DNA of 61,525 nucleotides, taken from the NCBI GenBank assembly GCA_964624605.1, contig CAZUXS010000001.1:1-61525 (forward strand). The letters run 5' to 3'. This document shows positions 16,397 through 46,049 of this stretch, in pieces. The position numbers and the translations under genes are program-made. The notes under the pieces were generated by a model that was not told where the DNA came from, did no database searches, and saw only the letters and a program-made list of their open reading frames with translations. The stretch is from an uncultured Lachnospiraceae bacterium (GTDB taxonomy: Bacteria; Bacillota; Clostridia; Lachnospirales; CAG-274). Each line of letters starts with the position of its first letter. Within the stretch, counting starts at the first letter, position 1.

Positions 16397-17308
16397 CTAA
16401 AATTCTATTTCTTTTAAGTATCTGCTCAAAGCATCCTGCCAAGTAGGCAACGGAGTAAAGCCGTTTTCAACGAGTTTACTTTTATCAAGTCTGCTGTTGA
16501 GAGGACGCACTGCCTTTGATACACCGTATTCCGCTGTTGTGACGGGGATAACTCCGGTGTTTAAGCCTGCCTTTTTGTATATTTCACGTGTGAAGTCATA
16601 CCAAGAAATATAGCCACCCTCATTTGTTGCATGGTAGTAGCCGTACTTATCGGTTTCAATCATATCCACGAGAAGTCTTGAAAGGTCATAGGTATATGTC
16701 GGTGTGCCGATTTGGTCGTTTACAACCCTTACTTTGTCGTGAAGCTTACCTATATTGAGCATCGTCTTTATAAAGTTTTTACCGTTTGAGCCGAAAACCC
16801 AAGCAATACGCACTATAAAATATTTGTCAAGCGTATGTGCAACAGCAAGCTCGCCCTCAAGCTTTGTTTGACCGTAAATATTGAGTGGCTCGTAGTTTTT
16901 GCAATCGGGCTTCCAAGGCTCGGTGCCTTGACCGTTGAAAACGTAATCCGTGCTTATATATACCATTTTACAATCAACTTTTTTGCACGCTCTGGCTATG
17001 TTTGCTGTGCCGCCTGCATTTATGGAACGTACTTTTTCAGCCATACTGTCATCTTCCGCTATGTCAACAGCCGTCCAAGCCGCACAATGTATAACGGCAT
17101 CAGGCTTTATTTTTTCAATTGTATTTTCAACAGCCTTTTCGTCGGTAATATCAAGCTGAATATAAGGCATTTGGCTTATAGCCGTTTTGTCTTGCGGCGT
17201 ATAATAAGGTGCAAGGTCGCTGCCTATGCCCTCATAGCCCTTCATTGCAAGCTTGTTCATAACATCGTGTCCGAGTTGCCCGGCAACTCCTGTTACCAAT
17301 ACTTTCAT
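16397..17308 (-). CDS. rfbD: dTDP-4-dehydrorhamnose reductase
   Basis: MKVLVTGVAGQLG (Rossmann fold), YISTDYVF, and YGQTKLEGE (YxxxK) are present. The start is taken at the internal M, with gaggtg upstream. Confidence 0.85.
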   Translation of the reverse strand: MKVLVTGVAGQLGHDVMNKLAMKGYEGIGSDLAPYYTPQDKTAISQMPYIQLDITDEKAVENTIEKIKPDAVIHCAAWTAVDIAEDDSMAEKVRSINAGGTANIARACKKVDCKMVYISTDYVFNGQGTEPWKPDCKNYEPLNIYGQTKLEGELAVAHTLDKYFIVRIAWVFGSNGKNFIKTMLNIGKLHDKVRVVNDQIGTPTYTYDLSRLLVDMIETDKYGYYHATNEGGYISWYDFTREIYKKAGLNTGVIPVTTAEYGVSKAVRPLNSRLDKSKLVENGFTPLPTWQDALSRYLKEIEF

Positions 17309-17494
17309 AATAACACCTCGCTTATTACATATATATTTAAAATTCATTCGTTATTTATAAGTAAATTATAACATCTTACGTGGAAAATAGCAACAAAAAA
17401 TATTTTAAAACTGTGGCAGTAAATGTCAGTAAATTTGAGTTATGATATATTCATCGGATAGATAATCCGAAAAAAATAAAAAGGAGATGGTAAT

Positions 17495-18541
17495 TTGAGC
17501 AAATTTGATTCTAAGAGTTTCAATCCTCAGGCATTTGGTGCCTATGTGGAGAGAATACCTCAGCTCAAGAAAAATGAACTTGTGAGGAGTAAGGCATTGA
17601 GAGGGAACAGTGAAATAAGAAATGCTTTCAGCTCGCAAACGGGTACAGCCTATGCAATATTGCCTATGTATGGTTTGCTTGGCGGTGATGCACTTAACTA
17701 TGACGGTGCAACGGATATTACGGCAACAACAACCGATACTTATGAAAGAGGTGTGGTTGTTGTGGGTAGGGCTAAGGCTTGGCTTGAAAATGACTTTTCG
17801 GAGGATATCACGGCAGGCGGCGGCTTTATGGATAACGTGGCAACACAGGTTGCGGCATATTTTGATGAAGTTGATCAGGATATTTTACTTTCAATATTGA
17901 GTGGTATATTTTCAATGACAGGTAAAGAAAATCTTGAATTTGTAAACAATCATACCTATGATATCACCGCTATCGGTGATGGTACGGTTGAACCCGCAAC
18001 TCTCAACAAAGCAATTCAGCAGGCAGGCGGTGACAACAAAAACAATTTCACAATTGCAATTATGCACTCCGAGGTTGCAACACAGCTTGAAAACCTCAAT
18101 TTGCTTGACTATCTTAAGCAGACGGATAAGGAAGGTATTCAGAGGGATATCGCACTTGCAACATGGAACGGAAGAGCTGTTTTGATTGATGATTCAATGC
18201 CTTATGAAGATGGTGAGGACGGAAAAACAAATTATACCACCTATATACTCGGTACGGGTGCGTTTGACTATGAAAACATAGGTGCAAAAGTGCCTTACGA
18301 AATGGCAAGAAATCCGGTAACAAACGGCGGTCAGGATACACTTTATGTGCGTCAAAGAAAAGTTTACGCACCATTTGGCATAAGCTATGTAAAGGTAAAT
18401 CAGCAGAGTCTTTCACCTACGAATAAGGAGCTTGCCGACGGTGAAAACTGGTCACTTGTAAACAACGGTGAAAAAGAACCCGTTTACATAAACCACAGGA
18501 GTATACCTATAGCCAGAATCATAAGCAAGGGCAGAGCATAA
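17495..18541 (+). CDS. major capsid protein, SPP1 gp13-like
   Basis: The TTG start is preceded by aaaggaga. The motif pattern parallels SPP1 gp13: F.P..F..YV, MPY..L.GD, RG.AW, VA.Y, IDDSMP.E..EDG....Y..G.GA..YE, ARN...G.D.L, PT..ELA.G.NW. Confidence 0.75.
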   Translation: MSKFDSKSFNPQAFGAYVERIPQLKKNELVRSKALRGNSEIRNAFSSQTGTAYAILPMYGLLGGDALNYDGATDITATTTDTYERGVVVVGRAKAWLENDFSEDITAGGGFMDNVATQVAAYFDEVDQDILLSILSGIFSMTGKENLEFVNNHTYDITAIGDGTVEPATLNKAIQQAGGDNKNNFTIAIMHSEVATQLENLNLLDYLKQTDKEGIQRDIALATWNGRAVLIDDSMPYEDGEDGKTNYTTYILGTGAFDYENIGAKVPYEMARNPVTNGGQDTLYVRQRKVYAPFGISYVKVNQQSLSPTNKELADGENWSLVNNGEKEPVYINHRSIPIARIISKGRA

Positions 18542-18554
18542 TTGAGGTGATTGT

Positions 18555-20009
18555 ATGTGGGATTTTCAATTTCCGTTTTCACAAATGCCTCGCATAAACA
18601 ACATCTTGAAAAAAGGTGCCGAGACGAAAGTTACACTTGAAAGTTTTATTTTGAGGGAAGTTGACAGGTTCAAGGCATCACCCGTATTTGCCGATATGCT
18701 GCGTGGGGAGGACTATTACTGCGGCAGACACGATATACTGCACAGGAAAAGGACAGCAATCGGTGAGGGCGGAAAAGTGAGTGTTGTTGATAACCTGCCA
18801 AATAACAGGGTTGTGGATAATCAATACAGAAAACTTGCAGACCAAAAACTTAACTATATATTGGGCAAACCCGTTGTTTTTAGGAGTGACAACAGCGAGT
18901 ATATGGAGCTTATGCAGGATATATTCGGTTCGGACTTTCACAGGACAATAAGAAAAATTGCTTTGGATGCGGTAAACTGTGGCATAGGTTGGATGTTTGT
19001 GAATTACGATGAGGACGGGAAACTCATTTTTAAACGCTTTAAACCCTATGAAATTATACCGAGGTGGGCTGATGATGAAAAAACAAAGCTTGATTATGCC
19101 ATAAGATTTTATACCGCAATTGAGGTTGATGAAAAAGGTGAATCCGAAATACAAAAAGTTGAGTTTTACGATAAAAAGGGTATAAGAAGATATTTTGTGA
19201 ATAACGGCAGACTTGTACCCGATGGCAAAGATTGCAAAACACCGTATTTTTATTGCAGGGAAGAGGAGTTTTGTTGGAATAATATTCCGCTCATACCTTT
19301 TCGCTGCAATGATGAGGAACAGTCATTGCTTAAAAGCGTGAAAACATTGCAGGATGGTCTTAATACTTTGATGAGTAATTTTCAAAATTCAATGGAAGAA
19401 GATGTGCGAAATACCATATTGGTGCTTAAAAATTACGATGGTGAAAATTTGGGAGAGTTCAGGCGCAATTTAAGCACCTACGGAGCTGTGAAAGTGAGGA
19501 GCATAGATGGCTGTGAGGGTGGCGTTGAGGCACTCTCAATACAGGTGAACAGTGAAAATTACAAGGCTGTGATAGAACTTTTTAAGAAGGCAATTATAGA
19601 GAACGGCAGGGGGTACGATGCAAAGGACGACAGACTCTCGGGCAATGCAAATCAGCTAAACATTATGAGTATGTATTCCGATATTGACTTGGATGCAAAT
19701 TCGGTGGAGAGCAGCTTTAAAACGGCTTTTAACAGAATTGTGGATTTTGTGTTGTTGCACTTATACAACAGCGGCAGAGGAGATTTTTCAAGTGAAAAAT
19801 ATGAAATAATATTTAACCGTGATATGTTGATAAGTGAAAGCGAGGTAATCGATAACTGCATAAAGTCGCTGGAAATACTTTCATTTGAAACTGTGGTGGC
19901 ACAGCACCCTTGGGTTGATGATGTGAAAAAAGAGCTTGAAAGAAAAAAGAGAGAAAAGAGTGAGGTAAATAGTGAAGATAGAAAGACTGACGGAGCTTGG
20001 GATGAGTGA
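18555..20009 (+). CDS. phage portal protein, SPP1 gp6 family
   Basis: The 484-aa size fits. The N-terminal ...F..S....DM..GE.YY.G.HDIL.R.R and DN....N....L.DQK..Y..GKP pattern is typical of Phage_prot_Gp6 portals. Confidence 0.8.
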   Translation: MWDFQFPFSQMPRINNILKKGAETKVTLESFILREVDRFKASPVFADMLRGEDYYCGRHDILHRKRTAIGEGGKVSVVDNLPNNRVVDNQYRKLADQKLNYILGKPVVFRSDNSEYMELMQDIFGSDFHRTIRKIALDAVNCGIGWMFVNYDEDGKLIFKRFKPYEIIPRWADDEKTKLDYAIRFYTAIEVDEKGESEIQKVEFYDKKGIRRYFVNNGRLVPDGKDCKTPYFYCREEEFCWNNIPLIPFRCNDEEQSLLKSVKTLQDGLNTLMSNFQNSMEEDVRNTILVLKNYDGENLGEFRRNLSTYGAVKVRSIDGCEGGVEALSIQVNSENYKAVIELFKKAIIENGRGYDAKDDRLSGNANQLNIMSMYSDIDLDANSVESSFKTAFNRIVDFVLLHLYNSGRGDFSSEKYEIIFNRDMLISESEVIDNCIKSLEILSFETVVAQHPWVDDVKKELERKKREKSEVNSEDRKTDGAWDE

Positions 20010-20433
20010 GGAAAATGCTAAGCTTGTTATTGAGGAGCTGTCAAAGGAAGAAGCGGAAAAATCCGAAGCGGTAAATGATTTTGAGGCGGAAAAGGCAGCT
20101 ATCGTAAAGAAATATGAGGAAGATATAAAAAGCATAAAAATTGATAATGAAGTGGAAAAGGCACTCACAAAGGCAGGGGCAAAAAACATAAAGGCTGTAC
20201 GAGCCCTGCTTGACCTTGAAAATGCGGAAATGAACGAAAACGGAATTGTAGGTTTGAGTGAGAGCATTAAAAAGCTCAAAACAGGTAAAGATACGGAGTT
20301 TTTGTTTGAAAAAACGGGATTTAAAGGCGTGAGTGTGGGTGAGAGTACGCACAGGGGTGAAGTGAATACCGATAATATGAACTATAGTCAGCTTTGTGCA
20401 TACTTGGAAGAAAATCCGGATGTTATTTTATAA
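19972..20433 (+). CDS. phage scaffolding protein (GP20 family)
   Basis: The N-terminus MKIERLTELGMSEENAKLVIEE is followed by a Glu/Lys-rich coiled coil. The GTG start overlaps the portal 3' end. Confidence 0.65.
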   Translation: MKIERLTELGMSEENAKLVIEELSKEEAEKSEAVNDFEAEKAAIVKKYEEDIKSIKIDNEVEKALTKAGAKNIKAVRALLDLENAEMNENGIVGLSESIKKLKTGKDTEFLFEKTGFKGVSVGESTHRGEVNTDNMNYSQLCAYLEENPDVIL

Positions 20434-20444
20434 GGAGGATTACT

Positions 20445-20648
20445 ATGGCTAAAAGCACGGAAAATGAAAAGACAGCGGAAACTGTTGCAACAAAGAGTGA
20501 AAGGCGTTTTGAAAAATCACAGCTTTGCGAAAGCAAAAAGTTTGCAAAGCACAGATATGTTATGGATGCGCTTTTAAGTGACGGTGTAACATATACAATT
20601 GAAGAAGCCGAAAAGCTTTTAAATGAATATATTAAGAAGGAGGTTTGA
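20445..20648 (+). CDS. hypothetical phage protein (67 aa)
   Basis: A strong RBS, taaggagg, precedes the ATG. No family was recognised. Confidence 0.5.
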   Translation: MAKSTENEKTAETVATKSERRFEKSQLCESKKFAKHRYVMDALLSDGVTYTIEEAEKLLNEYIKKEV

Positions 20649-20653
20649 TATAT

Positions 20654-21979
20654 ATGGCATTGGGCGGAGGTAATTTTTCGGTACAAAATAAGGTGTTACC
20701 GGGCAGCTATATAAATTTTATAACAACGGCAAGTGCAAGTACCGTTTTTGCCGAAAGAGGCACGGGCGCAATAATTATGCCTATGGTTTGGGGCGAAGTG
20801 GGCACTGTTATTGAAGTTACACAGGAGGATTTTGAAAGGAATTGTCCTAAAATTTTCGGTTATCAATATACGGATGATGAAATGATGTGTATAAGAGATT
20901 TCTTTAAATACGGCAAGACATTACTTGTCGGAAGATTGAACGCAAACGGTAAAAAAGCCGGCAATATACTTGCAGAGGCTTTATATACGGGCAGTGCGGG
21001 TAATAAGATTTCAACCTATATGAGTCCCGATGTGGATGACGAAGAATATTTTAATGTTTACACATATTTTGACGGTGATTTGGTTGACAGCCAATACATA
21101 AACAGTTGGGATGGACTCAAAGACAATGATTATGTAAAGTGGAAGAAAAACGGTAATCTTGTAAAAAACGGTCCTTATATGTTGGAGGGTGGTACGGATG
21201 GAACAACGTCGGTTGCTCAGGTTTCGACTTTCCTTGAAAATATTGAGGCGTACAGCATAAACACAATAGCTGTGGACAGCAGTGACGAGGTCACAATGGG
21301 TATGCTTGTTTCATTTGTTAAAAGAATGAGAGATGAAAAGGGTGTTAAGCTTCAGGCTGTTGTGTACGGCAATAAAAAATATGACTATGAGGGCGTTGTT
21401 TGTGTGCTTAACAAGTTCAGCCTTACGGGCGATTTCACGGATGAGAGTGTTGCTCATAAGGGCATATACTGGGTGAGCGGTGCTGTTGCGGGATGTGCGA
21501 TAAATCGTTCGCTTACAAACAAGACGTATAACGGAGAGTACACAGTATATACGGCTTACACACAAAATGAACTTGAAACGGCTTTAAATGAAGGTAATTT
21601 TGTTTTCCATAAGGTTGGTGACGATGTGAGGGTGTTGCTTGATTATAACAGCCTCGTAACTTTCACACCTGAAAAGAATGAATATTTCAGAGATAATCAG
21701 ACGGTGAGAATTTGTGACCAGATTGCAACGGATATTGCATCTATATTCAACAATTCCTATTTGGGACTTGTTCCGAATGACAGTGCGGGCAGAATAAGCC
21801 TTTGGAGTGATATCGTGAATCATCACAAAAATTTGCAACAGCTCAGAGCACTTGATGATTTTGATGAAGAAGATGTCAGTGTTGAATCGGGCGAGAGTAA
21901 AAACAGTGTAGTTGTGTATGATGCGGTTATGCCTGTGAATGCTATGGCTAAACTGTATATGACAGTGACGGTAAACTAA
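20654..21979 (+). CDS. contractile tail sheath protein (XkdK-like)
   Basis: MALGGGNFSVQNKVLPGSYINF is the characteristic sheath N-terminus. The 441-aa size fits, and RBS aaggagg is present. Confidence 0.85.
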   Translation: MALGGGNFSVQNKVLPGSYINFITTASASTVFAERGTGAIIMPMVWGEVGTVIEVTQEDFERNCPKIFGYQYTDDEMMCIRDFFKYGKTLLVGRLNANGKKAGNILAEALYTGSAGNKISTYMSPDVDDEEYFNVYTYFDGDLVDSQYINSWDGLKDNDYVKWKKNGNLVKNGPYMLEGGTDGTTSVAQVSTFLENIEAYSINTIAVDSSDEVTMGMLVSFVKRMRDEKGVKLQAVVYGNKKYDYEGVVCVLNKFSLTGDFTDESVAHKGIYWVSGAVAGCAINRSLTNKTYNGEYTVYTAYTQNELETALNEGNFVFHKVGDDVRVLLDYNSLVTFTPEKNEYFRDNQTVRICDQIATDIASIFNNSYLGLVPNDSAGRISLWSDIVNHHKNLQQLRALDDFDEEDVSVESGESKNSVVVYDAVMPVNAMAKLYMTVTVN

Positions 21980-21991
21980 GGGGGTTATTGA

Positions 21992-22465
21992 ATGAGTGCA
22001 TCTGTAATGAAAGCTAAAGATACCGTGAGTGCAAAGCTTGCGGAATGTTATGTGAAAATTGACGGCAGCAGATATAATTTTATGCAGGCTATCAATTTGG
22101 AGGCCAAGATTGAAAAAACAAAGGTTGAGGTACCTATACTCGGGCAGACCGGTAAAGGTAATAAGGCAGGCGGTTGGAAGGGCAGTGGTACGGCTAAGTT
22201 CCACTACAACAGCTCAGTATTCAGAAAATTGCTTGAAAAGTACAAAAAGACGGGCGAGGATATTTATTTTGAAATTCAGGTTACAAACAATGATCCGACA
22301 TCTTCCGCAGGCAGTCAAAGTGTTGTGCTTGTGGATTGCAACATTGATGGCGGCATAATTGCAAAATTTGATGCCGAGAGTGATTATTTGGACGAGGAAA
22401 TGAGTTTTTCATTTGAGGATTTTGTTGTGGCACAGTCATTTACAAATCTTTCGGGTATGATTTAA
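21992..22465 (+). CDS. tail tube protein (XkdM-like)
   Basis: The 157-aa protein has the pattern ...AKLAECYVKIDG.RYNFMQAINLEAK.EKTK.EVPILG....GNK..GWKGSG.AKFHYN typical of the XkdM family. Confidence 0.8.
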   Translation: MSASVMKAKDTVSAKLAECYVKIDGSRYNFMQAINLEAKIEKTKVEVPILGQTGKGNKAGGWKGSGTAKFHYNSSVFRKLLEKYKKTGEDIYFEIQVTNNDPTSSAGSQSVVLVDCNIDGGIIAKFDAESDYLDEEMSFSFEDFVVAQSFTNLSGMI

Positions 22466-22477
22466 TCGGAGGTATAT

Positions 22478-22885
22478 ATGAGCAATTTGAATTTATTTTT
22501 GAAAAGCAACAAAAAGCAGAGGGAGAGTGCTGTTTACAAGGCAACGTCATCGCTTACCGATGAGAGCGGTGTGCCGCTTGATTGGGTGATAAGACCCGTT
22601 ACAACGGAGGAAAATGAAGATATAAGAGAAAGCTCAATGCGTGAAAGGGACGGAAGATATACTCTTAACGTGAGTGCATATACGGCAAAGCTTCTTGCCG
22701 CCTCCGTGCAGGAACCTAACCTTTATGATGCTTCTTTGCAGGATAGCTACGGAGTGAAAACACCCGAAGCGCTTTTAAAGGCTATGCTTGATAATCCGGG
22801 TGAGTACAACGCACTTGCGGATTTTGTGAAAAAGCTTAACAGCTTTCCAACTTTTGTTGAGAGTGTGGAACAGGCAAAAAAATGA
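22478..22885 (+). CDS. tail assembly chaperone (XkdN-like)
   Basis: The position directly after the tube gene, the size (135 aa), and an acidic N-terminal half fit. The ORF ends at an A7 slippery run. Confidence 0.65.
   Translation: MSNLNLFLKSNKKQRESAVYKATSSLTDESGVPLDWVIRPVTTEENEDIRESSMRERDGRYTLNVSAYTAKLLAASVQEPNLYDASLQDSYGVKTPEALLKAMLDNPGEYNALADFVKKLNSFPTFVESVEQAKK
22876..22882 (+). promoter_or_regulatory. putative -1 programmed ribosomal frameshift site (A AAA AAA)
   Basis: The heptamer A_AAA_AAA sits immediately before the TGA of the chaperone ORF. The -1 frame stays open for a further 46 codons, to 23022. Confidence 0.55.
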
Positions 22886-23022
22886 TAAGGGGCGGCGACA
22901 GTGAGGCGGTTTATGCCTATTACTGTTTTCACAAATTCGGGATGCCGCCCTCCCGATTTGCAGAAATGGGAGAAAGAGAGAAGGCTTTTATTGCGGCGGC
23001 GATAGAGCTTAAAGAAAAATAA
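22882..23022 (+). CDS. -1 frame extension of the tail assembly chaperone (G/GT-type long form)
   Basis: The open -1 frame reads MIRGGDSEAVYAYYCFHKFGMPPSRFAEMGEREKAFIAAAIELKEK. There is no independent RBS. The arrangement matches the conserved chaperone frameshift of tailed phages. Confidence 0.5.
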   Translation: MIRGGDSEAVYAYYCFHKFGMPPSRFAEMGEREKAFIAAAIELKEK

Positions 23023-23064
23023 GGGTGCGGAGAAAACTCCGCACTCAAAATCGGAGGTGATAGG

Positions 23065-23706
23065 GTGTATCAATTTTGGCTTGGAGATATTCTTTTACCT
23101 GTTGCGCCCGAAAAAGTGAAAATAAATACGGGGTCGCAAAACAGAGAATTGGTGCTTGTTGATGGCAGAGAGATAAATGTGCTTAAGGGGGCAAAGCTCA
23201 GAACCGTTGAATTTGATGCGCTTTTGCCGAATATACAGTATCCTTTTGCACAGTACAAGAATGGTTTTCAAAATGCCGATTATTACAGAAATGCCATAGA
23301 GGAGCTTAAGAATGAAAATAAGGTGATATCTTTTGTGATAACCAGAAAAATGGATATTAAGGTGTTTGAATATACGGATATAAGCTGTACACTTGAAAGC
23401 TATTATATCACGGAGAGTTGCGAAAACGGTTTTGATGTTGTGATGCACCTTGTGCTTAAGGAGTACAGGCAGTATGGGGCAAAGTTTTATGATGAAAACA
23501 ACGGGGTTACTAAAGAGAGAGAAGCGGATAATGCACCACAGATAACGGGGAAAACATATACGGTGCAAAAGGGTGACAGTCTTTGGAAGATTGCAAAAAT
23601 GTATTACGGTGACGGCAGCAGGTGGCAAGAAATTTACAGTGCAAACAGTGACAAAATTTCAAATCCGAACAGGATAAGTGTGGGTATGGTGCTCACCGTA
23701 AATTAA
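23065..23706 (+). CDS. LysM-domain tail/baseplate protein (XkdP-like)
   Basis: A C-terminal LysM domain is present (YTVQKGDSLWKIAKMYYGDGSRWQEIYSANSDKISNPNRISVGMVLTV). The GTG start follows ggaggtg. Confidence 0.8.
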   Translation: MYQFWLGDILLPVAPEKVKINTGSQNRELVLVDGREINVLKGAKLRTVEFDALLPNIQYPFAQYKNGFQNADYYRNAIEELKNENKVISFVITRKMDIKVFEYTDISCTLESYYITESCENGFDVVMHLVLKEYRQYGAKFYDENNGVTKEREADNAPQITGKTYTVQKGDSLWKIAKMYYGDGSRWQEIYSANSDKISNPNRISVGMVLTVN

Positions 23707-23717
23707 GGGGGAATTGC

Positions 23718-24965
23718 ATGAACGATGGTGAACTTGCACGTATTTTTAATTTTGCCATACTGAATTTTTTATCGGCAACCTGTGATGTGAAACCAATTAT
23801 GGTTGATGATGAAACGGAGGATGAGAAAAGCCGTAATCCGTCAGATTTAACATCGGATGTTGAAAGCATCATGCAAAAGTATGCCAAAGAGAATGGAAAT
23901 AAAAGCCTTTACAATTATAAAGACGAGAATTTTTATAATGAAAACAAAGCCGATATATATAATTACGAGTTGGGAAGTACGGATATATATGACAATAAAT
24001 CTATTGATAACGGAAATGAAGGACTTGTAAATTATTATATCGCTTTAAGCGGTGCGAGTAATTTTGAAAAATCGGCAGAGAATGGCAAAATAAACCGAAA
24101 TGTCTACAGTGGAGAATATACAAATATTTTTTCGTTGGGTGGAGATTTTGGCAGTGCTTATGAAAACAACTTGGAAAAAAATCGTAATAACGGGGTAAAT
24201 GATAGTGTTTACAAAAAAGGGTACGGGAACGATTCGTCAATATACAAAGATGGTTATTACGGCAAAAATTACCGCTTGCCAAATGGTTGCAATGAGGAAA
24301 ATTACGACATAAGCAACGGTGTGTATAATTCTGTGTACGGTTCTGAAAACAGTTCAAATGAGAATGTATACGGTATTGGCTACGGTTTTAACAATAGCAA
24401 TCATATTTTTGACAAATCCGAAAAATGTGATATTTACGGCTTTGAGGAAAGTGAATATCATGATTCGGAAGCTTTGGCGAAGTACGGTGAATACGGAAAT
24501 ACTCGCTATATTTCGGAAAATACGGTAGTAAAAGAAAATGACAAATTTATACCATTTCAAAATTACGGTACCGAAAACGATTTCAATATTTTCGGAAAAT
24601 ATACGGATTTGAGTTTTGCCGGTGAAAATTCGGAGAGTGATTATGCTTTGAATACCACGGGTGATTATTTGAACAAAAACGATGTGTTTAATATCAATAA
24701 GGGAGTTTCCGAAAATGATGAAAGCTATGTCGATTACGACATTGACGGAAGTGAGAAAAAAAGTGAACTTTTTTCAAAAATGCAAAAGCTTACAAACGAA
24801 ACAAACAACTACAGCAATTCGGGAGGAAGCATAAATATAAATATGGGTGGAGTTACTCAAAATTTTGCCTCCGGAGAAGGAGCAGATAATATTATGGATG
24901 TGTTTGTGGAAAGTTTGAAAAAGGGGTTGAACGGTTGCGGCAGCAGATATTTGGAGGCGAATTGA
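23718..24965 (+). CDS. Asn/Tyr/Gly/Glu-rich low-complexity protein (415 aa), unknown function
   Basis: A strong RBS, aaggggg, precedes the ATG, and the stop abuts the next gene. The composition is dominated by N, Y, G, S, E and D, with degenerate Y-x-x-N-type repeats. The non-repetitive C-terminus reads ...GGVTQNFASGEGADNIMDVFVESLKKGL. Confidence 0.7.
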   Translation: MNDGELARIFNFAILNFLSATCDVKPIMVDDETEDEKSRNPSDLTSDVESIMQKYAKENGNKSLYNYKDENFYNENKADIYNYELGSTDIYDNKSIDNGNEGLVNYYIALSGASNFEKSAENGKINRNVYSGEYTNIFSLGGDFGSAYENNLEKNRNNGVNDSVYKKGYGNDSSIYKDGYYGKNYRLPNGCNEENYDISNGVYNSVYGSENSSNENVYGIGYGFNNSNHIFDKSEKCDIYGFEESEYHDSEALAKYGEYGNTRYISENTVVKENDKFIPFQNYGTENDFNIFGKYTDLSFAGENSESDYALNTTGDYLNKNDVFNINKGVSENDESYVDYDIDGSEKKSELFSKMQKLTNETNNYSNSGGSININMGGVTQNFASGEGADNIMDVFVESLKKGLNGCGSRYLEAN

Positions 24966-24966
24966 T

Positions 24967-25929
24967 ATGGCACTTGAAGTTTGGATAACGGGTTCAAACG
25001 GTAAATTTATGCCCGAAATGGTGAATGAAGTAAGTTGGACTACGGAGCTTTTCGGTGCGGGGATGCTCGAATTTAAGGTTATAAAAGAAGGCTCGATATC
25101 GTTCAAAGAGGGTGACAAGGTAGAGATGAGTTTTGACGGCAACAGCCTTTTTTGCGGCAGGGTGTTTGAAAAAAAGAGAACACAGCTCGGGGTGATATCG
25201 GTTGTTGCTTACGACCAAATGAGATATTTGCGTAACAAGGACAGCTACACATTTATAAACAAAACTGCGGCACAGATTGTGAACATGATATGCACCGATT
25301 ATAAGCTGCCCATAGGAAGCATAGCGCAAACGGGATTTGTGATTCCCTCACGTATAGAGGATAATTCCACTTTGTTTGACATAATTTACACAGCACTGTC
25401 GCTTACAAAAAATGCCACAGGCAATGAGTTTTTATTGTATGACGATTTAGGAAAAATTTCATTGCAACCCATATCCTATTTTGACACAAATCTTTTGGTG
25501 GATAATGAAACAAGCATAGGCTTTGATTATTCCACAACAATAGACAGTGATGTGTATAACAAGGTGAAGCTCATACATACCACATCACAAAACAAGGTTG
25601 TGACGGATACCGTATATGCGGACAGTGACGCAGATAAGATAAATGAATGGGGTGTGCTGCAATATTTCAGGCACATTGACGGAAATATAGACGGAAATAT
25701 GCTTGTAAAAAATATATTGAATACGTATGACAGAAAAAACAGAAAGCTTGTTATCACAACCATGGGTAACAGATATTTGAGAGCAGGCAGCAGTGTTTAT
25801 GTGAAGCTGGATATAGGCGATTTTGTGCTTGATGACAAAATGAGGGTGAAAAAGTGTGTGCATACATTCAGTGAAAATCAGCATTTTGCGGCATTAACAC
25901 TCAGTGGCGGACAACTTAATTCAAAGTAG
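24967..25929 (+). CDS. baseplate hub / late-control-D-like protein (XkdQ/YqbQ family)
   Basis: The 320-aa size and N-terminus MALEVWITGSNGK....V..VSWTTE..G....LEF fit. The position before the baseplate wedge genes also fits. Confidence 0.7.
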   Translation: MALEVWITGSNGKFMPEMVNEVSWTTELFGAGMLEFKVIKEGSISFKEGDKVEMSFDGNSLFCGRVFEKKRTQLGVISVVAYDQMRYLRNKDSYTFINKTAAQIVNMICTDYKLPIGSIAQTGFVIPSRIEDNSTLFDIIYTALSLTKNATGNEFLLYDDLGKISLQPISYFDTNLLVDNETSIGFDYSTTIDSDVYNKVKLIHTTSQNKVVTDTVYADSDADKINEWGVLQYFRHIDGNIDGNMLVKNILNTYDRKNRKLVITTMGNRYLRAGSSVYVKLDIGDFVLDDKMRVKKCVHTFSENQHFAALTLSGGQLNSK

Positions 25930-25944
25930 AAAGGACAGGGGTAT

Positions 25945-27015
25945 ATGTTTGAAAATATGACTTATGAAAAGCTTATGGAAAGCTCACTTGCAAGGGTGAA
26001 AACAGATGTGGATAAAAGACAGGGATCTGTGATTTACGATGCACTTGCACCTGCTTGTGCAGAGCTTGCACAGCTTTACATAGAGCTTGACAACGTATTG
26101 AAAGAGGGGTTTGCGGACACGGCAAGCAGAGAGTATCTCATTTTGAGGGCAAAGGAGAGAGGTATTACACCAAATGAAGCCACAGCCGCAGTGCTGCGTG
26201 GTGTATTTGACGGTGAAGTGCCTATAGGCAGCCGATTTAATTTGGGTGAGCTTAATTATGAAGTCACGGAAAAAATAAAGGATTATGAATACAAGCTGAC
26301 TTGTGAAACAACGGGTAGTGTGGGCAATAAATATTTCGGAACTCTTACGCCTATAAATTATATACAGGGCATAACAAGTGCGGCAATAACGGAACTTTTG
26401 ATACCGGGGACGGATGAAGAGGATACGGAGACATTCAGACAGAGATACTTTGACAGCATAAACAATTTATATTTCGGCGGAAATGTTGCCGATTACAAAA
26501 GACTGCTCAAAACAATACAAGGTGTGGGACAGGTCAGGATTGAACGTGTCTGGAACGGTGGCGGCACCGTAAAGGTGATTATGACGGACAGTGACAATAA
26601 TATACCAACGGATGAACTGCTTTCCGAGGTAAAGGAAAAGCTTGATCCGGCGGAATATGAGGGCTGTGGTATGGGACTTGTGCCCATTGGACATAGTGTA
26701 AAGGTTGTTGCACCCGAAGTGACGTATGTGGAAGTATATTTTGACGCTCACCTTGATGGCAGAACAATTGAGGATATAAAATACGAGGCGTTTGAAATAA
26801 TATGTGATTTTTTCGATGAAGTAAATGCCGGTTGGAGTGACGGAGAAACTGTAATCTACAGTTCCGATATTCATTCAAAGCTTATGGAAATTGAGGGTTT
26901 GAAAAATATAAGCGGTCTTACAATTAATGAAAAATTGCACTTTACACTTGCAAACAATCATTTGATAGAGTGCAAAAACGTGTATATAAGTGAGGAGGAT
27001 TGGCTTGGCGTATAA
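25945..27015 (+). CDS. baseplate J / gp47-family protein (XkdT-like)
   Basis: The N-terminus MFENMTYEKLMESSLARV....DKRQGSVIYDALAP.A.ELAQLY..LD......FADTA.REYL...A.ERGI is typical of baseplate J-like proteins. Confidence 0.8.
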   Translation: MFENMTYEKLMESSLARVKTDVDKRQGSVIYDALAPACAELAQLYIELDNVLKEGFADTASREYLILRAKERGITPNEATAAVLRGVFDGEVPIGSRFNLGELNYEVTEKIKDYEYKLTCETTGSVGNKYFGTLTPINYIQGITSAAITELLIPGTDEEDTETFRQRYFDSINNLYFGGNVADYKRLLKTIQGVGQVRIERVWNGGGTVKVIMTDSDNNIPTDELLSEVKEKLDPAEYEGCGMGLVPIGHSVKVVAPEVTYVEVYFDAHLDGRTIEDIKYEAFEIICDFFDEVNAGWSDGETVIYSSDIHSKLMEIEGLKNISGLTINEKLHFTLANNHLIECKNVYISEEDWLGV

Positions 27016-27829
27016 TAATGTTTTTGGGTTGGAATATCCCGATGAGAATGACTATTACGACATAAAAGTAATAAACGAAAATATAAGCAAGGTTGCAACA
27101 CAGGCGGCAAAAATGAATACGGTTGTGGTTGCCGCCTATGACACTGCACAGGATATGGCAAAAAATGCGGATTTTGTATGCCCCGAAAATGAGGCAGGCA
27201 CAACATTGAACAAGGCATTGCTTTCGGTGAACAAGGGCGGCACGCTCGTGTTGCTTGACGGCACATATAATATAAATGAAAGTGTTGTTTTGAATAAACC
27301 GATTAAAGTTGTGGGTGATGGAAGAGGTACTGTGCTTAAGCAACTTGATGACAGCGGTGAAACATTCAATATTTTTATTGTGGACTGCGAAGATGTGTAT
27401 ATAGGGAATATGACAATGAAAGATAACAAAAAAAGTACATCACCTAAGTGGCTTGTGTTTGTGAAAAAAGATGGAGCAGTTATAGAAAATGTGAAATTTC
27501 ATTTTGACTACAGTGTTGAAAATGATGTATCAATGATACATTTCATAAAGGATTGCACAGACGGCATTGTGAGATATTGCTGTTTTGCGAGAAGCTTTGA
27601 CACAAGTGATATGGATGGGGAGTTTTACGATGTTACAATAGCGGGAAATGCATTCTGCGGTGTGATACATGGCAACAGGCGATTTGAAAATGAAACCTCA
27701 CCCTCCGATGTAAGGCTGAGTTTTTCATATAACAGCAGCTATGTTTACACAGCTGTATCCGGACAAAAAACAGCTGTGTATGTTGCAAACAAGCTTGCAC
27801 ATTCAATTAATAATAAACAGGAGGCATAA
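27005..27829 (+). CDS. putative tail fibre / receptor-binding protein with a small beta-helix-like domain
   Basis: The N-terminus AYNNVFGLEYPDENDYYDIKVINENISKV resembles the conserved fibre N-terminal motif of Firmicute phages. The following segment, TLVLLDGTYNINESVVLNKPIKVVGDGRGTVL, is pectate-lyase-fold-like. The start is uncertain (GTG at 26990 or TTG at 27005). Confidence 0.5.
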   Translation: MAYNNVFGLEYPDENDYYDIKVINENISKVATQAAKMNTVVVAAYDTAQDMAKNADFVCPENEAGTTLNKALLSVNKGGTLVLLDGTYNINESVVLNKPIKVVGDGRGTVLKQLDDSGETFNIFIVDCEDVYIGNMTMKDNKKSTSPKWLVFVKKDGAVIENVKFHFDYSVENDVSMIHFIKDCTDGIVRYCCFARSFDTSDMDGEFYDVTIAGNAFCGVIHGNRRFENETSPSDVRLSFSYNSSYVYTAVSGQKTAVYVANKLAHSINNKQEA

Positions 27830-27830
27830 T

Positions 27831-28142
27831 ATGAGTGAGGCGGTTGATTTGATAAAGGAAGCGGCAGTTGAGGCTGTGGAAGCGGAAAAACCTATGCAGG
27901 TGGTTTTCGGAGTGGTTACATCGGCACAGCCACTTGAAATACAGACGGAGCAAAAACTTATACTTCCGGAAGAAGTTTTATCTCTTGCAGACCCCGTGAG
28001 AGATAAAACGATAGTGATACATAGGGGTTTAAAGGAGGGTGAAAAGGTTATGATGCAGAGGATACAAGGTGGTCAACGATACATTGTTATGGATAGAGTT
28101 GACGATAAGGTCATGGATGGTGATGTGACTGATGACATATAA
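27831..28142 (+). CDS. DUF2577 baseplate protein (XkdR-like)
   Basis: The pattern ...P..V.FG.V.SA.PL.I...Q...L....L.L.......I.RGL..G..V...R.QGGQ.Y.V.DRV parallels XkdR. RBS caggagg is present. Confidence 0.75.
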   Translation: MSEAVDLIKEAAVEAVEAEKPMQVVFGVVTSAQPLEIQTEQKLILPEEVLSLADPVRDKTIVIHRGLKEGEKVMMQRIQGGQRYIVMDRVDDKVMDGDVTDDI

Positions 28143-28467
28143 TATTGACTTCAACAACTCAGTCATAAGCGGCTACTGCGATGATAAGGCGGAAATGAGA
28201 CAGTTCATTTACAAAACACTGATGACACAGCGATACAGATATTTGATATATGACAGGCGTTACGGTGTGGAGATTGATGACCTTTTCGGTTTGCCTTCAA
28301 ACTATGTTTGTGCGGTTTTGGGCAGACGTATAAGCAGTGCATTGGAACAGGATGACAGGGTTAAGTCTGTGACCGATTTTGTGTTTTCGATAGAGAGAAA
28401 TTCCGTAAAAGCAAATTTCAAGGTAAATACCGTTTACGGAGAAATAGAGGCAAATTTTTCTCTGTAG
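28132..28467 (+). CDS. DUF2634 baseplate protein (XkdS / gp25-related)
   Basis: The pattern ...G.CDDK.EM.Q.IYK.L.T.RY.Y.IY...YG.E...LFG is typical of the XkdS family. Confidence 0.7.
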   Translation: MTYNIDFNNSVISGYCDDKAEMRQFIYKTLMTQRYRYLIYDRRYGVEIDDLFGLPSNYVCAVLGRRISSALEQDDRVKSVTDFVFSIERNSVKANFKVNTVYGEIEANFSL

Positions 28468-28488
28468 ACGGCAGAATGGAGGTTTATT

Positions 28489-28728
28489 ATGAAGAAAAAA
28501 ATTGCAGTTGGTTCAGAGGTAAGAGAAATTTTGACAAAAATTGTGAGGGGACAGGATATTGAGCAGACAACCACAACCGATGAAGATTTTGAAGGCAACA
28601 CAAGGAGTAAAACAGTGACTAAATCCGTGCCTATTTCGGCAAAGGTGAGGGCGGCAAAAATACTCCTTGATGATGAAAACGGTGTTGAGGATTGCACCGA
28701 AAGTGTAACTATAGTGGAGGATATATGA
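28489..28728 (+). CDS. hypothetical phage protein (79 aa); weak resemblance to the C-terminal end of small terminase subunits
   Basis: RBS ggaggt is present. The ...ISAKVRAAKILLD.. segment resembles the ..K.KA.E.L.K.. tail of Terminase_2-type TerS proteins. No DNA-binding N-terminal domain is present. Confidence 0.35.
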   Translation: MKKKIAVGSEVREILTKIVRGQDIEQTTTTDEDFEGNTRSKTVTKSVPISAKVRAAKILLDDENGVEDCTESVTIVEDI

Positions 28729-28729
28729 T

Positions 28730-29278
28730 ATGGCTGATGATAAGGGCACATTCGGTGTTAAGCTTATAGACTATCTTCCGCCGGTGACGGCTGATATAAG
28801 TGATTTTAAGGAACTTTGCAAGGCTGAGCAGATTATATTTGATGCCTGTGTTTCAGGCTGTGACAGGGTGAAAAATGAATACAGCGTTTATTGTGCCGAT
28901 GAATACGGACTTGCCAAATATGAAGCTATGTTTTCACTGCCGACATCGGGAACAACAGAAATACGGCGTCGGCGTATACTTGACAGATTGAATGGAATAA
29001 AGGAAAGTGTAATAAATTATGTGTCAACACTTTATGGTAATGCTATAAAGGCATATAGCTTCAGTTCCGAGGACTATGTGCTCAGGATAAAGGTGGATAT
29101 GGATAAATACGAATATCTTGAAAGCATAAATACCTTGCTTGAGGAGCTTGTGCCTTGCAATGTGGTGATAAAAACGGAGCTTGACTACAATACGCATAAG
29201 CTGCTTAAAAAATATACACATAAGGAACTTTCAAAGCTCAAACACGGCGAGATAAAGGACTATCACGATGAAAGTTGA
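28730..29278 (+). CDS. DUF2313 tail protein (XkdU / YmfQ-like)
   Basis: YLPPV.....DFKELCKAEQ..FD and EIRRRRILDRLNG are typical of DUF2313. Confidence 0.7.
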   Translation: MADDKGTFGVKLIDYLPPVTADISDFKELCKAEQIIFDACVSGCDRVKNEYSVYCADEYGLAKYEAMFSLPTSGTTEIRRRRILDRLNGIKESVINYVSTLYGNAIKAYSFSSEDYVLRIKVDMDKYEYLESINTLLEELVPCNVVIKTELDYNTHKLLKKYTHKELSKLKHGEIKDYHDES

Positions 29279-30506
29279 GAGTATTAAGAAAATTGTGGGC
29301 GGCGGTTATGATGATTACTGGCACTATAAAGGGCGATACAGGGTATGCAAGGGCAGCCGTGCCAGTAAAAAAAGTAAAACAACCGCTATCAATTTCATAG
29401 TGAGGATAATGAAATATCCGCAGGCAAATTTGCTTGTTGTGAGAAAGGTTTTTGCCACGCTCAAAGACAGCTGCTACACGGAGCTTTGCTGGGCAATAGA
29501 CAGACTTGGGGTGAGAAAATACTTTAAATGCAGACTCTCACCCCTTGAAATAGAATACATTCCCACGGGACAGAAAATATATTTCAGAGGTCTTGATGAC
29601 CCTTTGAAAATTACTTCCATAACAGTTAAAACGGGTTGCCTGTGTTGGCTGTGGATAGAGGAGGCTTATGAAATTTCGGATGAGGGTGATTTTAATATGC
29701 TTGATGAAAGTATAAGAGGATACGTGCCCGACGGACTTTTCAAGCAGATAACGGTTACTCTCAATCCGTGGAATGAAAGACACTGGATAAAAAGACGATT
29801 CTTTGATGTAAGTTCGGATGATATACTGGCTAAAAGTACGGATTACCGCTGCAATGAATTTTTGGATGCTGCCGATTTGAGGGTGTTTGAGGATATGAAG
29901 AAAAACAACCCGAGAAGATATCAAGTTGCGGGGCTTGGAAATTGGGGTATATCCGAGGGTTTGGTTTACGAAAATTGGCACGAGGAGGATTTCAATATTG
30001 ATGAGGTCAAAAAAATATCGGGTGCAAAAACGGTATTCGGCTTGGATTTCGGTTATGTAAATGACCCTACGGCACTTTTTTGCGGTGTGGCAGACGAAAA
30101 AGAAAAAAAGCTTTATGTGTTTGATGAGCTTTACGAAAAGGCATTGAGCAATGAAGAAATATACGAAAGAATATTCAAAATGGGATATTCAAAGGAAAAA
30201 ATAAGAGCCGACTGCGCCGAACCCAAAAGCATAGACCGCTTGCGTGATTTGGGCTTGAAGGGCATAAGGGCGGCAAGAAAGGGCAAGGACAGTATACTAA
30301 ACGGCATTGACTATATACAGGATTACGAAATTGTAATTTCAAAAAAATGCAGCAATTTCTCAAATGAAATAAGCAACTATACATGGGATAAGGATAAAGA
30401 GGGAAGAACAATAAATAAACCATTGGACGAGTTTAATCATCTTATGGATGCAATGCGATATGGCATGGAGGAATTGATACGTGGTGAAAATTTGAGTTTT
30501 GAATAA
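29268..30506 (+). CDS. terminase large subunit, PBSX family (atypical Walker A)
   Basis: The Walker B-like motif WLWIEEA and the nuclease motifs FGLDFGY.NDPTA and NHLMDAMRYG are present. The Walker A position reads GSRASKKS where GGRGSGKS would be expected. Confidence 0.8.
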   Translation: MKVESIKKIVGGGYDDYWHYKGRYRVCKGSRASKKSKTTAINFIVRIMKYPQANLLVVRKVFATLKDSCYTELCWAIDRLGVRKYFKCRLSPLEIEYIPTGQKIYFRGLDDPLKITSITVKTGCLCWLWIEEAYEISDEGDFNMLDESIRGYVPDGLFKQITVTLNPWNERHWIKRRFFDVSSDDILAKSTDYRCNEFLDAADLRVFEDMKKNNPRRYQVAGLGNWGISEGLVYENWHEEDFNIDEVKKISGAKTVFGLDFGYVNDPTALFCGVADEKEKKLYVFDELYEKALSNEEIYERIFKMGYSKEKIRADCAEPKSIDRLRDLGLKGIRAARKGKDSILNGIDYIQDYEIVISKKCSNFSNEISNYTWDKDKEGRTINKPLDEFNHLMDAMRYGMEELIRGENLSFE

Positions 30507-30524: not shown

Positions 30525-30583
30525 GAAAAAAGGGGCTGTACGTAAATGTGCATTACACATTTACGACAGCCCCATAATTTTTT
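30525..30583. terminator. strong bidirectional rho-independent terminator
   Basis: A stem of about 18 bp, ggggctgtacgtaaatgtg / cacatttacgacagcccc, is flanked by A6 and T6 runs between the convergent terminase and hydrogenase genes. Confidence 0.85.
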
Positions 30584-32063: not shown

Positions 32064-32131
32064 ATCATTACCTCTTTCTGTGTACGTCCGCACAGGGCGA
32101 ACCAAGTTAAAAAACGGGGTAGTTTTTTGTA

Positions 32132-33319: not shown

Positions 33320-33333
33320 CTCAATCAGCCCCT

Positions 33334-35061: not shown

Positions 35062-35086
35062 ATTTATCAATCCTCCCTACAACAGA

Positions 35087-45117: not shown

Positions 45118-45765
45118 CTAGTAGCAAAAGTTACAAGGGTCAAGCCCTCTTTTAGCTGCAACACTTGCTTTTACAGTTGAAACACTTTTTGCATTACTCA
45201 AACCTCTGCAACCGGAATAGCTATGGTATTTCTTTCCTGTTGGGGTTATATACACATCATAATCGGTAGATTGTGAACTTGTAATAGGTGTCTGTACGGA
45301 AACACTGTTTTGAGTTGTGGCAACAGTGGTTTCTTCTGTTGTGGTAGTTGTCGTAGTTATAACTGTGGTGGTTTCTGTTGTTGTGGTTATGGTTGTGGTT
45401 TCCGTTGTTGTTTGGGTTATTTCTGTTGTTTTAGTGCTTTCTTCGGTTGTTGTAACAGGAATATCTGTATCTTTATTTGTTTTTTCACACATACTTAAAA
45501 TAGACCCAAGAATCAAAAGTACCGCACAACAAGCACCCACAATCATCAGATGTTTTGTATCTTTGGTTTTACGATTGTTTTTCAACTCAACAAGCTCCGA
45601 ATATGTAATTGTGTCTACAGATTTATTTGAAGTTTTAAAAACAATTTCAAACTTCTTTGAACATTTTTTACACAAATACCCGTCTTTTAGTTTTGTTTTA
45701 CCGAATATTCCTGCGGATTTTCCGCAATGTACACATTGTTTCCCCACACAATCATCCCTTTTCAT
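45118..45765 (-). CDS. membrane-anchored protein: N-terminal DUF4428-like zinc ribbon, TM helix, Thr-rich linker, C-terminal H/C-rich small domain
   Basis: The features are CVHCGKS...KLKDGYLCKKC, one TM helix (MIVGACCAVLLILGSIL), a (T/E/I)-rich run of about 60 aa, and the C-terminus TGKKYHSYSGCRGL........A...GLDPCNFC. The start codon is uncertain. Confidence 0.6.
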   Translation of the reverse strand: MKRDDCVGKQCVHCGKSAGIFGKTKLKDGYLCKKCSKKFEIVFKTSNKSVDTITYSELVELKNNRKTKDTKHLMIVGACCAVLLILGSILSMCEKTNKDTDIPVTTTEESTKTTEITQTTTETTTITTTTETTTVITTTTTTTEETTVATTQNSVSVQTPITSSQSTDYDVYITPTGKKYHSYSGCRGLSNAKSVSTVKASVAAKRGLDPCNFCY

Positions 45766-46005
45766 AAAATTATTTTAACAATTTATTTTGATGTAAATAG
45801 CTTATAAAGCCACTTATAACAGCGGCATTTCTTTGCACTATGTTTGTTTCCGTAAGATCGGCTATATTTTAATTCTTAAATCAATTTATTAGTCTATGTA
45901 CATTATAATCCATCGACACGAAAAAGGCAACTATGATATCGTTAAAAAATAACGATAATGATATATTTTTGTATATGCTAAAACAAATAAGTTTATTTTC
46001 AACAC

Positions 46006-46049
46006 GTAAAAAAGGTATTGAACCCAACCGAGTTCAATACCTTTTTTTC
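46006..46049 (-). terminator. rho-independent (bidirectional) terminator downstream of the TIR gene
   Basis: A 12-bp perfect stem, aaggtattgaac / gttcaatacctt, is flanked by an A-run and a T-run. It lies 12 nt past the stop codon. Confidence 0.8.

Follow-up and report, generated by a model that had tools for sequence, protein, structure and literature searches.

Here we describe a ~13-kb phage-like cassette of 17 plus-strand open reading frames (ORFs; 17495-30506) in a stretch of DNA from an uncultured Lachnospiraceae bacterium (contig CAZUXS010000001.1 of assembly GCA_964624605.1; the window is the whole of this 61.5-kb contig, positions 1 to 61,525). Drawing on homologies, gene orders, promoter-motif copies and the dispersal of genes over the assemblies, we give a probability of roughly 70% to the reading that the tape-measure protein (TMP) of this tail module has been reduced and moved, and that the cassette is the main piece of a domesticated, dispersed particle system like PBSX or a gene transfer agent (GTA). 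An initial annotation had taken the locus for a normal PBSX-like tail module from which the TMP is absent, a premise that did not hold, the whole cassette being a permuted and dispersed derivative of such a module.

The window is contig C1 of a metagenome-assembled genome (MAG; G000, 300 contigs, 2.43 Mb, 82% complete, 6% contamination; G, C, L and P numbers are our labels for genomes, contigs, loci and proteins), and its closest genomes are labelled Eubacterium sp. CAG:274, Lachnospirales and Candidatus Gallispira. The cassette is flanked by two minus-strand genes, rmlD (16397-17347) and an [FeFe]-hydrogenase gene (30582-32135), and its ORFs were assigned to families by Pfam and PHROGs searches (Table 1). 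All 17 are intact, the capsid, portal, scaffold and large terminase genes included, and their junctions are tight, with ribosome-binding sites or stop/start overlaps of the ATGA type. The single promoter motif, the tight coupling of the ORFs and the single hairpin at the end make the cassette look like one operon. No integrase, replication or lysogeny genes were seen beside it in the flanks that were inspected. The terminal hairpin was not listed by a consensus promoter/terminator scan, and the promoter scan was uninformative (52 promoter-like sites versus 41 expected).

An empty slot behind the tail chaperone

The positions and descriptions that the initial annotation gave for the XkdN-type chaperone (22478-22885), its -1 extension and the LysM XkdP-like gene are correct. 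The chaperone ends GCA AAA AAA TGA, with the slippery heptamer A AAA AAA at 22876-22882, and its -1 frame stays open to a TAA at 23020-23022. Of the 14 XkdN loci examined, 13 conserve the peptide encoded in this frame (KKMIRGGDSEAVYAYYCFHKFGMPPSRFAEMGEREKAFIAAAIELKEK) at the protein level; among them are a complete prophage with a true TMP and elements where quite other genes follow XkdN. This indicates that the peptide is a real frameshift product. The gene has the features of a G/GT-type chaperone (a PF08890 domain, a slippery heptamer near the stop and a conserved -1 extension), and the retention of chaperone and frameshift product suggests that a TMP-like client is still being served.

In related complete prophages a PF20155 TMP of 580-870 aa occupies exactly the slot behind the chaperone, as the initial annotation had expected of such tails. 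In the window, XkdP starts 42 nt past the end of the -1 extension (23022 to 23065), with no ORF between. None of the 17 cassette ORFs matches a tape-measure family in Pfam or PHROGs, and the longest are the portal (484 aa), the sheath (444 aa) and an Asn/Tyr-rich ORF (415 aa); a canonical TMP, that is, a long, helical protein with a Pfam TMP domain, is found neither between chaperone and XkdP nor elsewhere in the cassette. Among related loci, the slot 5' of XkdP holds either a 725-aa PF20155 TMP (L019, scoring PF20155 at E = 3e-49) or proteins of 250-404 aa without a Pfam match.

Two further observations concern this slot. A perfect hairpin with an 8-bp stem (23025-23044; GTGCGGAG-TTTT-CTCCGCAC on the minus strand) sits between the end of the -1 extension and the start of XkdP, where the TMP gene normally begins. 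In an otherwise canonical relative (L025:14332-16237; G011, C7), XkdN is followed by XkdP and then XkdS, and no TMP-like, XkdQ or XkdR gene was detected at that locus.

A probable reduced tape measure one gene downstream

The last ~45 residues of the Asn/Tyr-rich ORF, which directly follows XkdP, are held in common with the 250-404-aa slot proteins and with the TMPs of L019 and phage phiMMP01. The consensus of this C-terminal module is (V/I)x(V/I)xMGGxTxN...D...(V/L)...L, and the matching segment of the window protein is not low-complexity; over its whole length, the protein has 14.9% Asn and 8.7% Tyr, versus 6.5% and 5.1% in the other cassette proteins. When the window's 644 six-frame ORFs were searched with a profile made from the last 70 aa of 58 distinct PF20155 TMP homologues, none of them from the window or the short family, only the Asn/Tyr-rich ORF matched significantly (E = 0.0011; the runner-up scored 2.3). 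Run against 1629 ORFs of 21 related loci, the same profile matched the 725-aa TMP and six short proteins, all at their C-termini (those of L020, L031, L017, L022 and L018 and the window ORF are included), the first non-member being a baseplate J ORF at E = 0.72. When 80 further loci (5469 ORFs) were searched, two profiles matched 23 ORFs, of which 21 were matched within 4 residues of the protein end, and every matched ORF that could be placed stands in the TMP slot.

Profile-profile comparison points the same way, with hhalign giving 89.9% probability (E = 1.7e-6) for the 7-member Asn/Tyr-rich family against 46 PF20155 TMPs and aligning aa 347-413 of the family to TMP aa 659-725, end to end. 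The reciprocal profile, built from the C-termini of six family members only and run against 1.84 billion representative proteins, returned 33 matches at E values up to 0.001; these are mostly short proteins, 31 of the matches end no more than 5 residues from the C-terminus, and PF20155 is carried by P0151 (E = 6.2e-6) and P0152 (E = 4.6e-5). Ten of the matches were scanned against Pfam (seven of at least 353 aa and three shorter), and eight of these have no Pfam family. Searching 5.8 billion clusters with the whole Asn/Tyr-rich ORF retrieved the protein itself and one homologue, P0002 (402 aa, 68% identity), in which the last 55 residues are nearly invariant and the remainder has diverged; metagenome scans with the two proteins confirmed no relative.

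We conclude from these alignments that the Asn/Tyr-rich ORF is a TMP derivative that keeps only the C-terminal module and lies one gene downstream of the usual slot. The initial annotation had named this ORF as a possible substitute, and of its suggestions this is the one favoured by the profile tests and hhalign. Its claim that the tape measure is absent stands for the canonical TMP and fails in the strict sense, because a TMP homologue with the C-terminal module is present among the cassette ORFs. The AlphaFold2 model (7-sequence alignment) has an N-terminal helix, a long low-confidence region and, at the C-terminus, a hairpin (372-383) followed by a helix (387-406); with a mean pLDDT (predicted local distance difference test score) of 32.5, such a low-confidence model is weak evidence. 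In place of the PF20155 domain and the helical body, the protein appears to have a low-complexity linker, fast-evolving and predicted to be disordered. In true TMPs, the C-terminal module presumably serves as the anchor in the baseplate hub.

The pairing is not confined to the window. XkdP followed by a short TMP-like gene (195-415 aa) is found in six genomes (G000, G004, G007, G019, G012 and G022), and in the last four the pair is separate from the main cassette, with host genes such as cstA and ABC transporter, pectinesterase and glycoside hydrolase genes on either side. In other relatives the short TMP precedes XkdP, and it also occurs between the large terminase and portal genes (L016, L017) and after XkdN at a split locus (L031).

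Gene order is permuted across the lineage

With respect to gene order, phiMMP01 shows the canonical arrangement, the head genes running small terminase (terS), large terminase, portal, head protein (annotated as a protease), scaffold, capsid and adaptors, and the tail genes running sheath, tube, XkdN, TMP, XkdP, XkdQ, XkdR, XkdS, baseplate J, XkdU and fibre. Compared with this, the window has the capsid before the portal, baseplate J and a fibre-like ORF before XkdR and XkdS, a terS fragment between XkdS and XkdU, the large terminase last and no adaptors. The 79-aa terS fragment matches a profile of 27 Terminase_2 homologues at E = 8e-8 and covers positions 59-117 of 144; the missing part is presumably the DNA-binding domain of Terminase_2 proteins. 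Similar fragments of 76-78 aa adjoin XkdP in G012 and G022.

We observe at least eight other layouts among relatives, each with its genes on the same strand. The whole of one permuted layout (portal, scaffold, capsid, adaptors, sheath, tube, XkdS, baseplate J, XkdU, fibre, XkdN, large terminase, XkdQ, XkdR) was seen in 9 of 80 loci, and parts of it in 2 others. Wherever the loci of two species of a genus were both mapped (three genera: g4, g7 and g8), the layout is common to the two. Split loci are seen in G004, G007, G019, G012, G022 and G021. The displaced pieces, flanked by housekeeping genes, comprise terS with the large terminase gene in G004, portal with scaffold in G012, and a two-locus split on one contig in G021; secA/prfB, serC/serA and ABC transporter genes border the elements of relatives.

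Two loci are of separate interest. At L028:6859-8106 (G008, C70) the large terminase is divided into two ORFs (317 and 78 aa) and may be a broken copy, and at L019:7082-8650 (G021, C29) a complete related prophage encodes a Mu F-like minor head protein with a CdiA_C toxin domain fused to it.

Scattered loci share one promoter motif

Functions lacking from the cassette are found elsewhere in G000. A gp6-like connector gene stands alone on C208, beside non-phage genes, and C235 has a second adaptor gene and a PF20765 tail terminator between toxN and mntP. These adaptors are 28-37% identical to the adaptors of permuted elements, values near the bottom of the 28-51% identity that those elements show among themselves. 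The 15-mer TGGCAGTAAATGTCA is found upstream of the cassette, of the connector gene on C208 and of the gene pair on C235. In the 2.43 Mb of G000 this 15-mer occurs in seven exact copies on seven contigs, versus ~0.005 expected by our own calculation, and once more with a single mismatch. The copies stand 39-70 nt 5' of a ribosome-binding site and start codon, the exception being C102, where the first downstream ORF is ~200 nt away; the genes behind them include holins and an endolysin (Table 1).

Motif variants of the same tandem-repeat design are specific to the lineages of the relatives, with three sites each in G007 and G019, four in G004 and three in G017, and a reversed control pattern gave no match. 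The sites in G007 and G019 lie at the main cassette, at the XkdP locus and at a fibre-like gene or terS, and those in G004 lie at the main cassette, at terS with the large terminase gene, at a leucine-rich repeat fibre-like gene and at a primase gene. The motif stands 5' of primase-like genes in G004 and G017 and of Lin1244_N/DnaB_2 and small tyrosine recombinase genes in G000, so that DNA-handling genes appear to belong to the same regulon.

Beside these loci, we note that the toxN gene at G000:C235:378-887, which adjoins the adaptor and tail terminator pair, encodes a ToxN of a type III toxin-antitoxin system, and that the primase-like genes preceded by the late-promoter motif (L169:1-1442 and L166:1-1442; G004, C61 and G017, C23) combine a CHC2 zinc ribbon with DUF927.

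In complete phages of the lineage, a single tandem repeat with an extended -10 element is found between terS and a gene for a DUF1492/sigma-70-region-4-like protein. This position, between the late-activator gene and terS, implies that the motif is most simply the old late promoter, multiplied. Using a profile of eight genes located upstream of terS, we recovered on C38 of G000 a 141-aa homologue of the activator (E = 9.7e-13); an NCBIfam ArpU search of G000 gave only a weak sigma-factor match. The C38 activator gene is divergent from a gene for an HTH_3 (XRE) repressor, which is followed by a Peptidase_M78 (ImmA-like protease) gene, and this putative switch adjoins polysaccharide synthesis genes. 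On C141 and C292, G000 also has pieces of another, canonical phage, namely a terS, a different terminase, a portal, a Mu F-like protein, a scaffold and a capsid. This capsid is 53% identical to that of the window, and the phage has a late-promoter repeat of its own, ATGTCCTTGAATGTCC.

Selection and descent

The ratio of nonsynonymous to synonymous substitution rates (dN/dS) was compared for two species whose elements have one permuted layout in common. It could be estimated for 12 of 15 genes and is 0.025-0.34, values that are rough given that dS is saturated; the TMP-like gene is the fastest evolving in this comparison. A BipA host tree groups G000, G004, G014, G012, G013 and G007 (support 86), and the elements of G000, G013, G004, G012, G019 and G007 come together (support 93) in a tree built from large terminase, capsid, portal and sheath, so that one host clade corresponds to one element clade. 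Vertical inheritance cannot be argued from capsid conservation, an argument we rejected given that the capsid is 58-70% identical even in prophages of Clostridioides difficile, Sporomusa and Paenibacillus. True prophages are nested in the element clades, so that the trees do not establish a single ancient domestication with purely vertical descent. At best, they suggest that descent is partly vertical, perhaps with exchange with circulating phages or repeated domestication.

Weighing the readings

A number of observations weigh against a reduced tape measure in a dispersed, domesticated system. On the side of the tape measure, the Asn/Tyr-rich ORF has no match in Pfam (TMP_3 domain included) or PHROGs, is not helical (few short helices in the poorly scored AlphaFold2 model), lies outside the TMP slot and is linked to TMPs over about 45-65 residues; a 6-sequence profile of short TMP-slot proteins made without its closest relative, L018, missed it, and the family lengths of 195-415 aa are a poor fit to a strict ruler. 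On the side of the system, the cassette has neither connectors nor a full terS in cis, both occurrences of the G012 motif variant are at the XkdP locus, the portal locus having none, and the MAG is fragmented, so that small contigs could in principle come from another strain, though the exact 15-mer is common to them. In the 4-protein tree, the complete prophage L058 falls inside the element clade of G000, and L019, a C. difficile prophage and an Acutalibacter prophage, all with long TMPs, fall in a sister clade.

A decaying, non-functional prophage remnant, with plain erosion behind the shuffled order, the shortened terS and the reduced TMP, would account for the lack of connectors, full terS and full TMP in cis, and the split large terminase gene of L028 fits it as well. 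We consider this unlikely. Erosion does not sit well with 17 of 17 ORFs intact at coupled or overlapping junctions, with dN much below dS in relatives of the same permuted layout, or with the conserved -1 frameshift peptide, and the functions missing from the cassette are found elsewhere behind an identical 15-mer, together with lysis genes. A regulatory switch is retained as well.

We hold it to be quite improbable that the tape measure is truly absent, with the Asn/Tyr-rich ORF an unrelated low-complexity protein and tail length set otherwise or not at all. The missing family matches, the predicted disorder, the position outside the slot and the failure of the small profile without L018 are what one would expect of an unrelated protein, but PF20155 TMPs are linked to its C-terminus by three independent profile tests, the register agreeing with the ends of the proteins, the segment concerned is not of low complexity, and short proteins in the true TMP slot bridge both classes as intermediates.

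Supply of the tape measure in trans, which the initial annotation had raised, is very hard to sustain with another prophage of G000 as the source: the one TMP that the genome-wide search turned up, an 811-aa PF10145 protein encoded on C17, belongs to a different tail module (baseplate J 24% identical) and lacks the motif at its C-terminus, no PF20155 TMP was found in the assembly (82% complete), and tblastn with cognate long and short TMPs found nothing else in G000. An assembly chimera of the MAG contig is about as improbable. The exact order of the window was indeed found in no other genome, but the places where one gene joins the next show ribosome-binding sites or ATGA-type overlaps at gene boundaries and do not coincide with repeats, other permutations recur in independent assemblies (one of them complete in 9 of 80 loci), and the 402-aa homologue of the Asn/Tyr-rich protein exists independently.

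A possible assembly pathway

Under the preferred reading, that of a reduced and moved tape measure in a domesticated, dispersed system, the cassette, if expressed from its motif, could give rise to a particle as follows. XkdP and the Asn/Tyr-rich protein would seed the inner baseplate, and XkdN with its -1 frameshift product would chaperone the Asn/Tyr-rich protein and recruit tube subunits. Tube and sheath would then grow until capped by the terminator protein encoded on another contig, with the Asn/Tyr-rich protein having a possible role in tail length. The connector of C208, the connector and tail terminator of C235, the holin and endolysin of C121, the holin of C231 and the C38 switch would be further pieces of the system, putatively tied together by the seven exact copies of TGGCAGTAAATGTCA.

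Extending this to the relatives, we lean, with some reserve, towards a family of elements in gut Clostridia in which the head, tail, packaging and lysis genes of a domesticated contractile-tailed phage have been cut up, permuted in one orientation and scattered among housekeeping genes, in which each piece carries a late promoter that covaries with the lineage, in which one stand-alone repressor/protease/late-activator switch would drive all of them, and in which the TMP has become a disordered linker with a C-terminal anchor.

Features of the cassette and of its neighbourhood

Table 1. Cassette features in the window (C1) and other copies of the promoter-associated motif in G000
Feature	Contig	Coordinates	Strand	Basis or remark
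Promoter-associated 15-mer TGGCAGTAAATGTCA, tandem TGKCAG repeat	C1	17414..17428	+	67 nt 5' of first cassette gene; downstream: cassette
Major capsid protein	C1	17495..18541	+	phrog_247 E 4e-89; 47-80% identity to relatives (tblastn)
Portal protein, 484 aa	C1	18555..20009	+	PF05133 E 3e-84; after capsid gene, non-canonical
Scaffolding protein	C1	19972..20433	+	PF06810 E 5e-16
Small conserved protein	C1	20394..20648	+	phrog_966 E 2e-15; precedes sheath gene in relatives too
Tail sheath, 444 aa	C1	20645..21979	+	PF04984, PF17482 and related families; 46.6% identity to phiMMP01/phiC2 sheath
Tail tube	C1	21992..22465	+	PF09393 E 3e-52
XkdN-type tail assembly chaperone	C1	22478..22885	+	PF08890 E 2e-34; phrog_389
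Slippery site and -1 frame extension of chaperone (G/GT-like product)	C1	22876..23022	+	Sequence read; peptide conservation
XkdP-like LysM tail protein	C1	23065..23706	+	PF01476 E 5e-14; phrog_380 E 7e-59
Asn/Tyr-rich, probably vestigial tape-measure protein, 415 aa	C1	23718..24965	+	C-terminal module aa 371-404, nt 24828-24929
XkdQ/YqbQ-like baseplate protein	C1	24967..25929	+	PF24032 E 3e-90; hub role presumed
Baseplate J (XkdT-like)	C1	25945..27015	+	PF04865 E 1e-50; before XkdR/XkdS, out of canonical order
279-aa protein, probably tail fibre	C1	26990..27829	+	No Pfam or PHROG match; homologues follow XkdU (fibre position) in canonical relatives
XkdR-like DUF2577 protein	C1	27831..28142	+	PF10844 E 1e-20
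Sheath initiator (gp25/XkdS-like)	C1	28132..28467	+	PF10934 E 7e-27
Small-terminase (terS) fragment, 79 aa, without N-terminal third	C1	28489..28728	+	Terminase_2 profile match
XkdU/Mu gp48-like baseplate protein	C1	28730..29278	+	PF10076 E 2e-13
Large terminase, last operon gene (non-canonical position)	C1	29268..30506	+	PF04466, PF17288
Long GC-rich hairpin, likely terminator	C1	30532..30573		Between terminase gene and convergent hydrogenase gene; read from intergenic sequence
TGGCAGTAAATGTCA	C208			Downstream: connector
TGGCAGTAAATGTCA	C235			Downstream: adaptor and tail terminator
TGGCAGTAAATGTCA	C121			Downstream: holin (PF05105) and Amidase_2 endolysin
TGGCAGTAAATGTCA	C231			Downstream: second holin copy
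TGGCAGTAAATGTCA	C162			Downstream: Lin1244_N/DnaB_2 protein
TGGCAGTAAATGTCA	C102			Downstream: 188-aa tyrosine recombinase

Outside the cassette, two [FeFe]-hydrogenase-like genes flank a SpoIIE-type phosphatase gene on the minus strand (30582-35070), and the 578-aa hydrogenase-like protein of this region has a PAS domain, as might be expected of a sensory hydrogenase module. The hydrogenase region recurs at G000:C169:124-1621 (87% DNA and 94.6% protein identity), a hint of strain heterogeneity or contamination in the genome bin. Further along, again on the minus strand (45118-48160), a 699-aa TIR_2/TPR/DUF6273 protein adjoins a DUF4428 protein, and the two may be a defence-type pair.

Comparison with known systems

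Few features in virology are as well conserved as the order of structural genes in tailed phages, and long tails are generally held to require a tape measure. The locus departs from both rules, its order having apparently been reshuffled many times in the lineage and its putative ruler reduced to nearly only a C-terminal anchor. This opens the questions of what minimum TMP a contractile tail needs, of whether a disordered chain can measure length, and of how a phage may be dismantled into a host regulon by copying its late promoter before each fragment.

Among known contractile structures, a headless tailocin (R-type bacteriocin) has tail genes only, whereas capsid, portal, scaffold and large terminase genes are present here. 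Of the deposited phages, the phiC2/phiMMP01-like myophages of C. difficile have the sheath most similar to that of the window (46.6% identity), and their tail modules are made up of the same families, but unlike the window element they are complete and in canonical order, with a 762-aa TMP. The PF20155 TMPs of phiMMP01 and of the G021 prophage have the C-terminal module and the partnership with XkdN and XkdP in common with the window protein, which differs from them in lacking the PF20155 domain, in its length (415 versus 580-870 aa), in its predicted disorder and Asn/Tyr-rich composition, and in its position downstream of XkdP.

Among known systems, PBSX of Bacillus subtilis and GTAs come closest to the window element, which stands apart from both in its shuffled order, its multiplied promoter and its probably vestigial, relocated TMP. 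PBSX, a defective, contractile-tailed prophage, occupies a single contiguous locus, keeps the canonical gene order and has a long TMP, XkdO; xre/xpf is its repressor/late-activator pair. The window element has the same families (XkdN, XkdP, XkdQ/YqbQ, DUF2577 (XkdR), gp25-like XkdS, baseplate J (XkdT), XkdU and a PBSX-type large terminase), and its control logic appears to be alike in combining a repressor with a sigma-like late activator. Compared with PBSX, its order is permuted, its genes are distributed over several loci, its TMP is probably vestigial and follows XkdP, and its terS is truncated. PBSX packages 13.4-kb fragments of host DNA, according to PMC12946183.

PMC12946183 also defines GTAs as structural and lysis genes without replication or integration genes, in several operons dispersed in the host genome. 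The window element agrees with this definition in that no replication, integration or lysogeny genes were found at the locus, and its seven motif copies on seven contigs, together with the split loci of relatives, suggest dispersed and co-regulated operons, the genome being a fragmented MAG. RcGTA and FpGTA likewise have structural and lysis genes in dispersed operons and no replication or integration functions. The window element also resembles RcGTA in its small terminase, which in RcGTA is without its DNA-recognition part. RcGTA is siphovirus-like, and gene order is conserved in GTAs. The order of the window element, by comparison, is shuffled between genera, and its tail is predicted to be contractile, unlike those of RcGTA and FpGTA. 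A limited full-text literature search returned no description of a shuffled contractile element, and PMC12946183 describes FpGTA, a gut element, as podovirus-like and mentions only podovirus-like GTA-like elements as reported so far in gut Clostridia. If functional, the element described here would add to these a myovirus-type GTA-like particle regulon, and if its particles package host DNA as cargo, it would represent a contractile-tailed gene-transfer or killer particle in common gut Clostridia.

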